9,840 bases of DNA from a virus (Duplodnaviria > Heunggongvirae > Uroviricota > Caudoviricetes): IMG/VR virus record IMGVR_UViG_2728369593_000015; one strand, written 5' to 3'. The position numbers are program-made. Below, piece after piece: positions 3,001 to 8,262 of this stretch (position 1 is the stretch's first letter; the number at the start of each line of letters is the position of its first letter).

Positions 3001-6000
3001 CTGTAAAAGGGATGCTATCCATGACACCAAGTATGGATATTTTAGGTGCTAATGTTGGATTATACCCTGAAGTTTCTGCTGTTACTGGAAACTTATTTCA
3101 ATATGTAGCATATGGCGCAACCATTGCCATTGGTAATGATAAAACCTTCAATTCGGATAATGGCTTTGGTCTGCTGGCTCCCCGTGGTTTAATGCATATG
3201 TCCGATACAAGCGGATTCAAATACAAGATTTTTGCAGGTATGGAAAGACGAGATGTCAATCGCAACTATACTCTCGAAGGAAAAACAATACAGACGAAAC
3301 AAACAACAGTATCGCTAAACAAAACTGTTGATGAATATCAAGTTGGCGCAACAATTGGGTATGCACCTGTAGCCTTCACACTAGCATTTAATAAAGTAAC
3401 ATCAGAATTCAAGACAGGGGATGACTATTCATTTATAAATGGAGCAATCACCTTCTTTTTTAACTGAATTGAATTCAATCAAAATAACATAAGTCCAACA
3501 AAAACATAAAGTGCGAAATGAATGCCAGCTCCATTTATTTCGCACTATAAAAGATTAAAAGTTGCAATAAAATAATAAAATGACTCAGTTACGAAAACCA
3601 ATAAACTGTGGCCAGTAGTGAGTCGCTCATCATCGGGCTTTTTGGCGAATGAAATTTAGCTACGCTTTCGAGTCTCATCGTCTTCCCCTCTTGCCCTGTT
3701 TGACCATCAGGACGCCGTTAACTATTACATGACGCTCGCCTTTGCTGTCTCGGTTGTACTTGAGCACTGTTCCTCTTGCGCAGGAAAGCATCCTCGCCAC
3801 TTCGGTCTGATTGCCTCGTGTCTGGATAAGAAGCTCTAGTATCGTTTGAATTGTGGCGTTCATGCGTTCTCCAGTTCGGTGATTTTTATTCCAAGCCGTC
3901 CGCCTGGTACTTTCACACCACGAATTACGCGAATGTCATCGAATTGCTCGTCGTCTTCCGCAAATCCGGCGTGGATAAGGGAGTCGAGTAAACCTTTCAG
4001 GATGTTGTCGAGGTCGCGGCGGCGGGAGTCTGGAACGTCTGCGATGACTTTGATGCGGAGTCGTGATTTGGTGAAAATGTCTAACTAAAGTTGGCGGATG
4101 ATTTGCTGAACGTCTTTTCGGTATTTCTGGCCTTTATCGCTGATGTAGTATTGGCTTCCCCGTCTTCGCCAGTAGGTGTTCACCGACGGCGGGTATGGAA
4201 GCACAAACTGATATTCGTTCATGACTTAATCTTCCCCTCCTTCAGCAGTATCGCCTGCGTCCTGATCACGCCTTCGAGGTGGTAAAGTCTGGCGTCTTTG
4301 TTGTCGAGAATCCTTGTGCGTCGGTCGATCTCCGCGTGGCAGTCACTACAAGCCCATGCGCCGATCAGGTCGTCAGGTTTCATTCCCGTTCCGCAAATTC
4401 CAGCCATCCGGTAATGTGCCAGAACTGTAGTTTCAGGATTTCCATTGCATATGCCGTAAATACGTACCTGGCATTCTCTTCCGCGCGCTTCTTTGCGTAG
4501 GTTAGCCATGACTTCTCCCCCATTTCTCTTGGCATCTCCTCAACCACACTCGCATATTTTGGCTGGTAATATCGGTATGCTCTCCGCTGTATTCATTTTG
4601 TGAGTGCTTGCATCTCACATAAACAAATACGGCAAGCAATGGATATGCGAATAACAAAATAAATAACAGAGCTGTAGCAACAGATACTTTCACAAAAAAT
4701 GCAGGCAACTCTCTGACCTGATAGTCTGGAAAATCCAAGAATTCATCGATTATGTTGTTAGCAACATTGGTAGTTGCAATACATGCGACTGACAGACAAT
4801 CAAAATAATTAAAGTCATATCCAGCCGCAGCAGCCCATGTTGGATTGTCTTGAAAATGTTTAAACGTTATTTTTCCGTATCGGCTAATCACCATCGTCTT
4901 CTTCCTCGTACATTGTGAACCGCCCCGGGTTTCCTGGAGAGTGTTTTATCTGTGAACTCAGGCTGCCAGATCATTATTTCCGATGGAAGCATAATAAGCT
5001 TTTTCTGCTTCTGCCGGAGGAATATGGCCCAGCCTTTCCAGCAATCGTCGATTGTTATACCAGTCCACCCACGTTAGTGTGGCCAGTTCCACTTCTGCCG
5101 GTTTTTCCAGCTCTTACGGTGTATTACCTCCGCTTTGTAAAGACCATTGATGCTCTCAGCCATCGCGTTGTCATACGAGTCGCCAGTACTCCCTGTTGAT
5201 GCCAGTAATCCGGCTTCCTTAAGCCGCTGCGTGTAGGCCAGCGATACATACTGAGAACCTTTATCACTGTGATGGATTGTGCCGGACGGCCGACGGGCCC
5301 ACAACGCCTGCTCCAGTGCATCCAGCACGAATGTTGTTTCCATGGATGATGAGACCTGCCATCCCACGATGTATCCGGCGAACACATCAATGATGAACGC
5401 CACATAAACGAAGCCCTGCCATGTGCTTACCCAGGTAAAATCAGCCACCCACAACTGGTCTGGACGTTCTGCCACGAACTGACGGTTTACGCGGTCGCAT
5501 GCGGCAACGGCTTTCCGGCTGACGGTAGTGCGGACCTTTTTACCCCGGAGAACACCGGCAAGTCCCATAACTGCCATGAGACGTGCCACAGTGCATCTGG
5601 CCACTCTGATACCTTCCCGTAACAACTGACGCCAGACTTTACGCACACCGTATACCTGGTGATTTTCATCGTATACGCGCTGTATCTCTTTCTTCAGCCA
5701 GTCATCGTGCTGCGCACGGGCACTGCGTTTATCCGGATGATGTCGCTGTTGCTGACAATGGTAATACGTTGACGGGGCAATATGCAGTTCGCTGCATACC
5801 GGTCCGACCCCGTACTGCTCACGCAGCTTATCCAGCAGTGGCATTATTTTTTCCAGAGGCGGTCGAACTCCGCCTTCGCAAAATAAGCGGAAGCCTGGCG
5901 AAGGATATCGTTACTGCGGCGCAGTTCACGATTTTCACGTTCCAGCTCTTTCAGACGCTGACGTTCAGCGGTGGTGAGTCCACCATCACCACTCCCGGTA

Positions 6001-8262
6001 TCCCGCTCATGCTGGCGAACCCAGACACGCAGAGTCTCCGGCGTACAGCCAATCTTTGGGGCAATGGAACAAATTGCCGCCCACTGTGAGTCATATTCAT
6101 CCTGACTTTCCAGAACCATACGAATCGCCCGCTGACGGACTTCGGGGGAAAAACGAGTATTTTTAGTCATCCTGTTTACCTCTTTCTCAGGGAGTTTAGT
6201 CTCCAGGATTTCCGGGGCGGTTCATTGAGCTATTCGGATCGCTCATCAGTTCTGCGCAGTTATGGTCTGCCATGGTTTTCATGAAAACCCAGTTCTTTTT
6301 CTGCCCTCTTCCTTTCTGCAATAGCGTCAATGATGCTAGCAAATATTCCAAGATATTTGGTGCGCCCATCTACGCATATATTCGCAATCCACTTGCATCT
6401 CTCTTTATTGAAATACACTCCAGTCACTCCTGACGAATTGGTTATTTTTCTCTTTTGGTTCTGTGCATTCTGTTGGTGTGTAACCAATCGAAGATTAGAT
6501 AGCCTATTATCTGACCTTACTCCATTTATATGATCAATTTTATACCCTAATGGAATCTCACCATTATTTATCATCCATATAACGTGGTGAGCATAAGTAA
6601 TTACACCATCGATAGTTAACATCCTATAACCATCACTCCTAATGTAACCAGCAACACTGCCAACCTTAACATTATTAGAAGGAGACACTTTCCATCTAAG
6701 TACACCTAAAACATCATCATATGATAATTTATTTCTTAATTCGTCTATGTTGCTTATATTTCTCATTATGTTCCACCATATTTAAGCATTCATATATACA
6801 ACGCTCACACACGTGAACTTCCAGCACATGCAGCTTCTGACCGCAGTTAGCGCACGTTAAAGCTCGCTCGACACTTCCTTGTTCGTAACTTCGATTTTGG
6901 TCAATCACCTTGTTTTCCTCGCACGTTCTCTAAGCCACCGGATATCCCACAGATGAGCCGTGTAGTTGAAGGTTTTTACGTCAGATTCTTTTGGGATTGG
7001 CTTGCGTTTATTTCTGGAGCGCTTCGTTGGAAGGTATTTGCAGTTTTCGCAGATGATGTCGGTGATACTTCGTCGCTGTCGTCTCATGCCGCCCTGTCTC
7101 CCCATCGCGCTTTCCATTCGAGAGCTAGTCGCGCTTCGTCTGACCACTTAACGCCACGCTCTGTACCGAATGCCTGTATAAGCTCTAATAGCTCCGCAAA
7201 TTCGCTTACACGCATCCTGCTGGTTGACTGGCCTATTACCACAAAGCCATTCCCGGCAAGGTTAGGAACAACGTCCTGCTGCTTTAATGCTGCGGTAAAC
7301 ACACACTTCCAGCTTTCTGCATCCAGCCAGCGACCATGCCATTCAATCTGACGCGAAACGTCACCAAGGCAAGCCCAAAGCTTTCGATTCTGGTCTAAGC
7401 TGCGGTTGCGTTCCTGAATGGTTACTACGATTGGTTTGGTTGGGTCTGGAAGGATTTGCTGTACTGCGTGAATAGCGTTCTGCTGATGTGCTGGAGATCG
7501 AATTTCAAAGGTTAGTTTTTTCATGACTTCCCTCTCCCCCAAATAAAAAGGCCTGCGATTACCAGCAGGCCTGTTATTAGCTCAGTGATGTAGATGGTCA
7601 TTTAATACTCCGTCACGTTTTCCTGTCGCCACGACTCGTCATATTCCGATTTCGGCATATTGGCGATGTAGCTATATGGCGATCCCGATTCAAGTTGCAG
7701 GAACTGGTGCGATTGCTCGTCAAGGAACAACGGGACACCACCTTCCCAACCTTCGCCGTTACGTTGTTTTTCAAGCATCAAAACAGATGCCGGAGATGCC
7801 AGTAGCTGTTCGTCCTTCTCTGACATCTTTTCACCACTCTGAACTCTCTGTAACGCTCTCTCGCGAGCCTTGTTACGCCAGATGATGAAAAGGTTGTCTG
7901 TCAGGTCTGTTATCGCTCCAGAGCCTTTTACGTCCATTTTCCCGGTTGGTTTTTCTTCGCTGTCTCCTTTTCGCGAGTGAGTAACGAGAATGACGTGGGA
8001 GTTTGTTTTGTTTTTGAAGTCGCAAATCGAGTCAACAAACGCCTTCTGCCCGTTATAGTCATCGTCGCCTATGCCACATTTCATCAGGCTGTCGATGATG
8101 AATAACTGGATGCCGTATCGGCGGCGAGCGTAGTCGAATATTTCGATCAGCCTGTCGGCTTTCGCCGTTCCGGTCAGGCCAAACACCCAAAGTCTTTCGT
8201 CATAAAATTTAAATGCAGAGTCAATTTCCAGCACTGGCGGCATCTTGCAGCACGTCGCCTGA

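Follow-up and report, generated by a model that had tools for sequence, protein, structure and literature searches.

The window analysed here, the 9,840 nucleotides of virus record IMGVR_UViG_2728369593_000015, carries a lambda-like prophage in a state of decay. Its positions 1-8262 are, apart from the insertion sequence (IS) described below, 99.8% identical to a prophage of the EPEC O127:H6 strain E2348/69, with which it shares a ninF gene split by an HNH gene, a 130-aa ORF, ybcO, a rusA with an internal stop, ninH, lpxR and Q. The E2348/69 prophage lacks both an IS629 copy at this position and the IS100-like element that, in the window, cuts the toprim replication gene at 8262/8263. Between positions 4916 and 6224 lies a 1309-bp element of the IS3 family, IS629 group, whose transposase is encoded on the minus strand. 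The features of the locus are as follows.

4884-4912, minus strand: downstream piece of the ninF remnant, encoding MYEEEDDGD and a stop, and overlapping the ribosome-binding site (RBS) and ATG (4892-4894) of the 130-aa ORF
4913-4915: left copy of the target-site duplication, TTG on the plus strand and CAA on the gene strand (read directly)
4916-4940, minus strand: IRR, the end downstream of orfB, ending ...GGTTCA on the transposase strand (inverted-repeat pair)
4958-5092, minus strand: displaced 3' end of orfB, a 44-aa ORF in another frame, holding the conserved C-terminal segment of IS3 transposases
5074-5844, minus strand: truncated orfB, with HTH_21 and rve domains and D135, D194, E230 and K237 kept (ORF list, Pfam/NCBIfam, translation)
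5097..5098: deletion site, where a T (plus strand; A on the transposase strand) is absent (global alignment to a 1310-bp copy)
5773-5889, minus strand: ALIL pseudoknot (Rfam RF01497), spanning the A6 run and the TAATG in which the orfA stop and orfB start overlap
5844-6170, minus strand: orfA, intact, 108 aa, a DNA-binding protein with HTH_Tnp_1 (ORF list, Pfam/NCBIfam)
6200-6224, minus strand: IRL, starting TGAACCGCCCCGG on the transposase strand (inverted-repeat pair and end alignment)
6225-6227: right copy of the target-site duplication, TTG, present as a single TTG at the empty site of E2348/69
6228-6259, minus strand: upstream piece of the ninF remnant, encoding ...CAELMSDPNSS (translation, alignment to intact ninF, PGAP annotation of NinF)

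The element is complete, as the initial annotation had claimed: its two terminal inverted repeats, 25 nt each, are complementary at 22 of 25 positions (88%) and have TG...CA ends, and TTG lies on either side, in keeping with the imperfect TG...CA repeats and 3-4-bp target duplications of the IS3 family. The span originally given, 4913-6226, starts correctly but stops one base short, as the duplication ends at 6227. The coding part also follows the family plan of two overlapping frames: orfB is shifted by -1 from orfA, and the two meet in a TAATG overlap at 5844. The orfA gene is identical to that of the copy in E. coli FORC 064. A programmed -1 frameshift signal is present by sequence, consisting of the A6 run at 5847-5852 and the ALIL pseudoknot, a structure that stimulates such frameshifting; the RF01497 match covers the full length of the model (1-117) with 120.3 bits (gathering score 50), and PGAP marks ALIL at the same place in intact copies. 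OrfB has the DD(35)E triad with a lysine seven residues after the glutamate, and its profile scores are 274.6 bits for NF033516 (cut-off 160) and 89.6 bits for rve. Given the NF033516 and ALIL scores, together with the identity to a known element at 1309 of 1310 positions, chance resemblance is no issue.

That identity was obtained with copies in FORC 064, 2013C-4991 and O103:H2 strains, and 1310-bp copies in many E. coli genomes are likewise 99.9% identical, one missing base being the only difference. The phage BP-4795 copy, named IS629 by its depositors, is 99.5% identical; the O157 copy that PGAP names IS1203 is 96.0% identical, and a partial copy that PGAP names IS629 is 95.6% identical over 796 bp. 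By the ISfinder convention, isoforms are at least 95% identical at the nucleotide level along their full length, and all three named copies lie above this value, in a comparison that left out the Shigella sonnei prototype. IS629, known from Shigella, STEC/EPEC and Stx phages with the isoforms IS1203 and IS3411, shares with the window copy the 25-bp TG...CA repeats, the 108-aa orfA, the -1-frame orfB with its TAATG overlap, the ALIL frameshift pseudoknot, the DD(35)E triad and the 3-bp duplication. It differs in its length (1310 bp) and in its 295-aa OrfB, whereas the window copy lacks one base and its transposase is cut after the catalytic triad. The element is of an already known kind, an ordinary IS629-group copy.

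With identities of only 96.0% to the O157 'IS1203' and 95.6% to the partial IS629 named by PGAP, the element is, on sequence comparison, a third subtype, non-O157, whose intact copies are labelled by PGAP only as 'IS3 family transposase'. The link to EHEC O157 made in the initial annotation does not hold, since the non-O157 copies are closer (99.9% versus 96.0%) and the prophage is EPEC O127:H6-like. IS629-group DNA was found in 4262 of the 5426 complete E. coli genomes. The sub-types of IS629 have been described as 4-5% divergent, with 3-4-bp duplications, and 62% of the O157 copies as located on prophage-like elements (PMC3271280); the element fits the former description, and its place in a prophage agrees with the latter preference.

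When the site is reconstructed with the IS and one TTG removed, the whole of it (1200/1200 bp) aligns with EPEC E2348/69 at 99.9% identity, and between window positions 4452 and 7672 the flanks do not differ from that strain. A single TTG stands at the uninterrupted site of E2348/69, which makes the element a simple insertion with a 3-bp duplication, as first proposed. The insertion was placed between the HNH gene and the 130-aa ORF, and it does lie 21 nt upstream of the latter, but the site is not intergenic: it is inside the 3' remnant of ninF, interrupted at ...NSS/MYEEEDDGD and stop, in its last 10 codons, and PGAP annotates 'protein NinF' at the empty site of E2348/69. Upstream of the break, the ninF piece reads into the IS, its joined sequence finishing with 11 residues (not shown), as a NinF::IS fusion of 28 aa.

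The splitting of ninF by the HNH gene is a separate feature. Alignment to intact ninF places within the gene an HNH block of ~548 bp, almost wholly a 507-bp ORF. The HNH gene and the 130-aa ORF had been regarded as a two-gene cassette, which they are not, since each occurs elsewhere without the other: strain 98195 has the 130-aa ORF with an intact ninF and no HNH, and AST240 has the HNH gene in ninF with ninG in place of the 130-aa ORF. A group I intron was also considered for the HNH block and rejected, as nearly all of it is the 507-bp ORF and no Rfam intron family is found in the window.

We are highly confident that an IS629-group element of the IS3 family transposed into the ninF 3' remnant of a lambda-like prophage, duplicating TTG; as recorded, its orfB lacks one base. 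IS3-family elements transpose by a copy-out-paste-in route via a circular intermediate. The insertion fell in the last 10 codons of the remnant and 21 nt before the ATG of the 130-aa ORF, and the ninF remnant would gain a new 9-residue tail encoded by the IS.

As recorded, the sequence does interrupt the orfB frame, in agreement with the initial annotation. Translation yields 249 native residues followed by 7 out-of-frame residues and a stop at 5074, compared with 295 aa in the intact protein; one lost base accounts for the end of OrfB, and of OrfAB, after OrfB residue 249. The truncated protein retains the catalytic D, D, E and K and lacks the conserved C-terminal 46 residues, and part of this end is recovered in the displaced 44-aa ORF, which matches NF033516 positions 342-369 and rve_3 positions 44-67 (the tail of the intact reference OrfB reads TEVELATLTWVDWYNNRRLLERLGH...). 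Global alignment confirms a 1-bp deletion in orfB as the sole difference from the 1310-bp copies of FORC 064 and 2013C-4991. The base, however, is not a G lost from a CCGGG-type run, as had been thought, and is instead a lone T/A between G5097 and C5098, which adjoins a CCGG and is outside any homopolymer run. At this point the reference reads CTTCTGTCCGG and the window CTTCTGCCGG; window positions 5095-5101 are CTGCCGG, where an intact element would have CTGTCCGG.

The initial annotation had also asked whether the base is missing from all copies in the same genome. No other IS629 copy searched shows the deletion. With an 81-bp probe, the best match of at least 22,094 places in 5,426 complete genomes keeps the extra base; an exact 32-mer carrying the deletion had no match in genome and metagenome collections, and an exact-protein look-up of the truncated OrfB returned none beyond contig AKYH01000159.1. 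The frameshift rests on this single draft contig, of assembly GCA_001605745.1. There is accordingly a substantial chance, though one we put below even, that the deletion is a sequencing or assembly error and that the real element is an intact, autonomous 1310-bp copy of the common non-O157 subtype. The absence of any substitution relative to the FORC 064 and 2013C-4991 copies, with the missing base as the only difference, and the absence of the deletion from every other copy searched are what such an error would leave.

The quality of the contig points in the same direction. It has six further indels in ~8.5 kb relative to its nearest references, at window positions 10, 2224 and 3455 (against E2348/69) and at 8468, 9516 and 9832 (against an IS100 copy), with indel:substitution ratios of 3:10 and 3:6, which are unusually high and typical of an indel-prone read technology. 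All six lie in homopolymer runs, and the contig is therefore indel-prone, so that an assembly error in orfB is still plausible. Yet these six are length changes in runs of 2-7 bases, whereas the base missing from orfB is one T with a G and a C as its neighbours, unlike the usual error signature, and it would be biologically unremarkable for an individual IS copy to bear an inactivating mutation of its own.

An autonomous copy has an uninterrupted orfB encoding the 295-aa OrfB, and the frame recorded here is interrupted, possibly through an assembly error. It is plausible that the copy is non-autonomous, with the DDE triad kept and the deletion perhaps an artefact of assembly; a real deletion would probably leave it unable to make active transposase. 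A transposase supplied by another IS629 copy could still move or excise the element, since both ends are intact and mobilisation in trans would be feasible. We propose annotating the locus as an HNH-split ninF into which an IS629-group element has inserted, and marking the transposase as frameshifted until reads confirm it.

The 1.3 kb of IS would part the 130-aa ORF, ybcO, the dead rusA, ninH and Q from upstream phage transcription, and expression from the 130-aa ORF through Q would need read-through across the IS. The opposite effect, that the IS acts as a mobile promoter whose read-out from the orfB end drives the 130-aa ORF, ybcO and the genes beyond, and that the insertion was kept for this reason, is in our judgement improbable. 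The arrangement is suitable, as the IS is indeed upstream of, and co-oriented with, the 130-aa ORF and ybcO (ORF list and domain annotation), the 130-aa ORF keeps an intact RBS (GAGGAAG) and ATG, 21 nt from the IS end, and a search of the minus strand from orfB to this ORF gave no terminator-like hairpin.

Against it, a consensus scan of the minus strand over 4400-6800 gave no sigma-70-like promoter, although such a scan is insensitive, since the IS's own promoter was missed too. By our inspection, no usable -10 lies 16-18 nt from the junction hexamer TTCACA, and transcripts driven from it would begin within or past the RBS. Given the frameshift, ~180 nt ahead of the 130-aa ORF are untranslated, which favours polarity. 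Moreover, the 130-aa ORF and the genes following it already belong to the early rightward operon of the uninterrupted prophage, so the IS is likelier to lower than to raise their expression. The inclusion of rusA among the genes that could be driven has to be dropped: with its internal stop it is a pseudogene, and driving it would yield nothing. A hybrid outward promoter formed at the IRR junction was rejected on sequence grounds and by the promoter scan.

The decay of the prophage, evident from the IS100-like element and the rusA stop, is independent of the IS629 insertion. The element is one more marker of this decay, with little importance beyond annotation.

The same nucleotide is occupied in one other setting. 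In the Stx1a prophage of E. coli strains 107, 109 and 110, ninF carries an IS1203 at the identical insertion point, in the same orientation, with the same TTG duplication and the same NinF fusion tail (11 residues, not shown) as in the window. That IS is of the O157-type subtype, an intact 1310 bp that differs from the window copy at 53 positions, and the prophage has ninF without the HNH split and ninG downstream instead of the 130-aa ORF; the two prophages share only ~56 bp around the site. The window-type junction was found in none of the 5,426 complete E. coli genomes or the phage collection, and an exact 34-mer across it had no match in GTDB representative genomes or JGI metagenomes. In these four collections the site is occupied only in strains 107, 109 and 110, and there by another IS subtype. 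The arrangement in the window could in principle be a chimeric junction of two prophages made by IS-IS recombination, as lambdoid prophages are mosaic, such recombination could shuffle flanks and another prophage has a copy of a different subtype at this site, but we give this next to no credence and reject it, because a recombinant junction would not normally retain a matching duplication and a colinear empty site, and here the same TTG is on both flanks and the sequence without the IS and one TTG is colinear with and identical to E2348/69 over >3 kb.

The TTG in the 3' end of ninF (...CGTACA-TTG-AGCTATTCGG...) may be a true hot spot for IS629-group insertion, a reading to which we give only slightly less than an even chance; alternatively, the site was entered only once, in an ancestor, after which the IS underwent gene conversion and the modules on either side were exchanged. 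If the events were independent, the target preference of IS629 would be much sharper than the 'no common target' picture drawn for it (PMC3271280), and the ninF tail could become a defined target for studies of site choice in the IS3 family. The locus could serve for strain typing, since one or more further draft assemblies have this junction too. Its sole mildly interesting point is that IS629-group insertions recur at one and the same ninF nucleotide in unrelated prophages.

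Removal of the IS element together with one TTG restores a sequence that matches the prophage of the EPEC O127:H6 strain E2348/69 over 1200/1200 bp, with 99.9% identity. This prophage is colinear with the window from 1 to 8262 (99.8% identity), with zero differences across 4452 to 7672. The simple insertion proposed in the initial annotation is therefore confirmed by an empty site that matches the reconstruction with a single TTG. The IS629-like element described there, with both terminal repeats and a 3-bp direct repeat, is also found, although its extent, given as 4913-6226, has to be corrected at the right end, since the second TTG reaches one base further. 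Duplications of 3-4 bp have been reported for IS629 (Rump et al., PMC3271280).

4916-4940 and 6200-6224: terminal inverted repeats of 25 nt, 22/25 complementary, with TG...CA termini
4913-4915 and 6225-6227: TTG target-site duplication, flanking both IS ends
6170-5844, minus strand: orfA, 108 aa, with HTH_Tnp_1 domain
start at 5844 in a TAATG overlap, minus strand, -1 frame: orfB, with HTH_21 and rve domains
5889-5773, minus strand: ALIL pseudoknot, full-length match to Rfam RF01497 (120.3 bits, gathering score 50)

The NCBIfam IS3-family model matches orfB with 274.6 bits (cut-off 160). The pseudoknot span takes in the A6 run together with the overlap of orfA and orfB, and in intact copies PGAP also marks the ALIL feature, with a programmed frameshift annotated.

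Matches to the element were obtained in 4,262 out of 5,426 complete E. coli genomes, and 1310-bp copies with 99.9% identity were the best. The copy of E. coli FORC 064 and similar non-O157 copies are identical at 1309/1310 positions, and a global alignment with the former gives one missing base as the sole difference. Identity is 99.5% to the copy of phage BP-4795, deposited as IS629, 96.0% (52 differences) to an O157 copy that PGAP names IS1203, and 95.6% to a partial copy that PGAP names IS629. The sub-types of IS629 are 4-5% apart, and IS1203 and IS3411 are regarded as its isoforms (Rump et al., PMC3271280), so that the window copy is a member of the IS629 group, with a subtype that is common among non-O157 strains. 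The suggested association with O157-type genomes is thus not borne out. The element is already known, and its location is new but unremarkable.

The insertion is not simply intergenic, but interrupts the C-terminal end of NinF. Translated on the gene strand, the empty site gives ...C A E L M S D P N S S M Y E E E D D G D stop, which is the C-terminal end of a lambda-type NinF and is labelled NinF by PGAP in E2348/69. The IS has separated the S codon from the M codon, 10 codons before the stop, and the ninF remnant in the window now ends with an altered fusion tail. The ATG of the 130-aa ORF (4894) is 21 nt downstream of the IS, and its ribosome-binding site is retained on the flank.

6729-6908, minus strand: N-terminal part of ninF
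6260-6807, minus strand: AT-rich block of about 548 bp with the HNH_3 gene, inserted inside ninF
4884-4915 plus 6228-6259, minus strand: C-terminal part of ninF

The block consists almost wholly of one 168-aa HNH_3 endonuclease gene, and comparison with the intact 57-aa ninF of strain 98195 sets its boundaries at ...HVC(E/S)(R/D)C and CAELMSD.... The HNH gene and the 130-aa ORF had been taken as a two-gene AT-rich cassette split by the IS. Their AT-richness holds (34-42% GC, vs about 50% nearby), but a single cassette is unsupported, because the ninF tail lies between them and they assort independently: in strain 98195 an intact ninF is followed by the 130-aa ORF, without the HNH gene, and in strain AST240 an HNH-split ninF is followed by ninG in place of the 130-aa ORF. 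Many E. coli prophages have the HNH-split ninF, with differing modules downstream, and PGAP names both halves 'protein NinF'.

The window-type junction of ninF and IS was absent from the 5,426 complete E. coli genomes, phage records, GTDB representative genomes and JGI metagenome contigs. Two RefSeq NinF fragments, WP_342080518.1 and WP_249543607.1, share the ninF::IS fusion tail, and one of them is carried on a 2273-bp contig; at least one further draft assembly thus carries the same insertion. Both proteins, labelled NinF, are really HNH-split ninF::IS629 fusion ORFs, a chimera that annotation is propagating as NinF.

An intact copy of the IS1203 subtype occupies ninF of an Stx1a prophage in E. 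coli 107, 109 and 110 (strain 107: 2523-3838 of the compared locus from NZ_CP028695.1), at the exact nucleotide of the window insertion, with identical orientation and TTG duplication. Its identity to the O157 copy is 99.9%, and it differs from that of the window at 53 positions. Unlike in the window, ninF is unsplit and followed by ninG, and only about 25 bp to the left and 31 bp to the right of the site are shared. Either this TTG may be a hot spot, struck twice by the IS629 group, or one old ninF insertion may have been reshuffled later, the IS through gene conversion and the flanks through an exchange of modules.

The initial annotation had orfB frameshifted by loss of a G in a CCGGG-type run. 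The 1-bp deletion and the frameshift stand, but what is missing between G5097 and C5098 is a lone T on the plus strand, or A on the transposase strand; this base adjoins CCGG and is neither a G nor within a run (reference CTTCTGTCCGG, window CTTCTGCCGG). OrfB follows the reference up to residue 249 and then reads QKWNWPH and stop, whereas intact copies have 295 residues. D135, D194, E230 and K237 are kept. The 46 lost residues (TEVELATLTWVDWYNNRRLLERLGH...) align with the final portion of the IS3-family and rve_3 profiles and therefore form a conserved segment; it is reasonable to infer that this copy has probably lost transposase activity. Since both IS ends are intact, mobilisation or IEE-assisted excision in trans is possible if another copy gives transposase (for IS629 excision see 10.1101/2023.06.07.543989).

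The deletion could also be an artefact, which we regard as quite possible, if somewhat short of probable. The window equals contig AKYH01000159.1 in full, from draft assembly GCA_001605745.1; in the collection searched no second contig has the shortened OrfB, and no other IS copy searched has the deletion. The contig holds six other indels, three relative to E2348/69 (AA to AAA at 10, C7 to C6 at 2224, T7 to T6 at 3455) and three relative to the closest IS100-type copy (A4 to A5 at 8468, AA to A at 9516, A4 to A3 at 9832), with only 10 and 6 substitutions, respectively, which suggests an indel-prone assembly. However, all six are length changes in homopolymer runs, whereas the IS629 deletion is outside any homopolymer. 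The istA and istB frames of the IS100-like element are broken by those at 8468 and 9516, and that at 9832 is a further istB-region indel.

As first annotated, the 130-aa ORF, ybcO (PF07102) and rusA point in the same direction as the IS, all on the minus strand, and so do ninH and Q.

3860-4222, minus strand: rusA, interrupted at codon 46 by an in-frame stop that E2348/69 shares (PGAP pseudogene there)

A consensus scan of the minus strand from 4400 to 6800, which also missed the IS's own promoter, gave no promoter-like or terminator-like sites, and by inspection the TTCACA hexamer at the junction has no usable -10, so a dedicated outward promoter in the IS seems unlikely. Read-through from the IS into its neighbours is possible, and polarity on the early rightward operon would be at least as likely.

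The prophage is decaying regardless of IS629: its toprim-domain replication gene, 1881 bp in E2348/69, is cut by a second element, and only 7602-8243 is left as an ORF.

8263-9840, to the contig end: IS100-like element (IS21 family)
2505-3467, plus strand: lpxR (lipid A deacylase), a moron-like insert between ninH and Q, on the opposite strand to them

The T-run change at 3455 relative to E2348/69 falls at the 3' end of lpxR.
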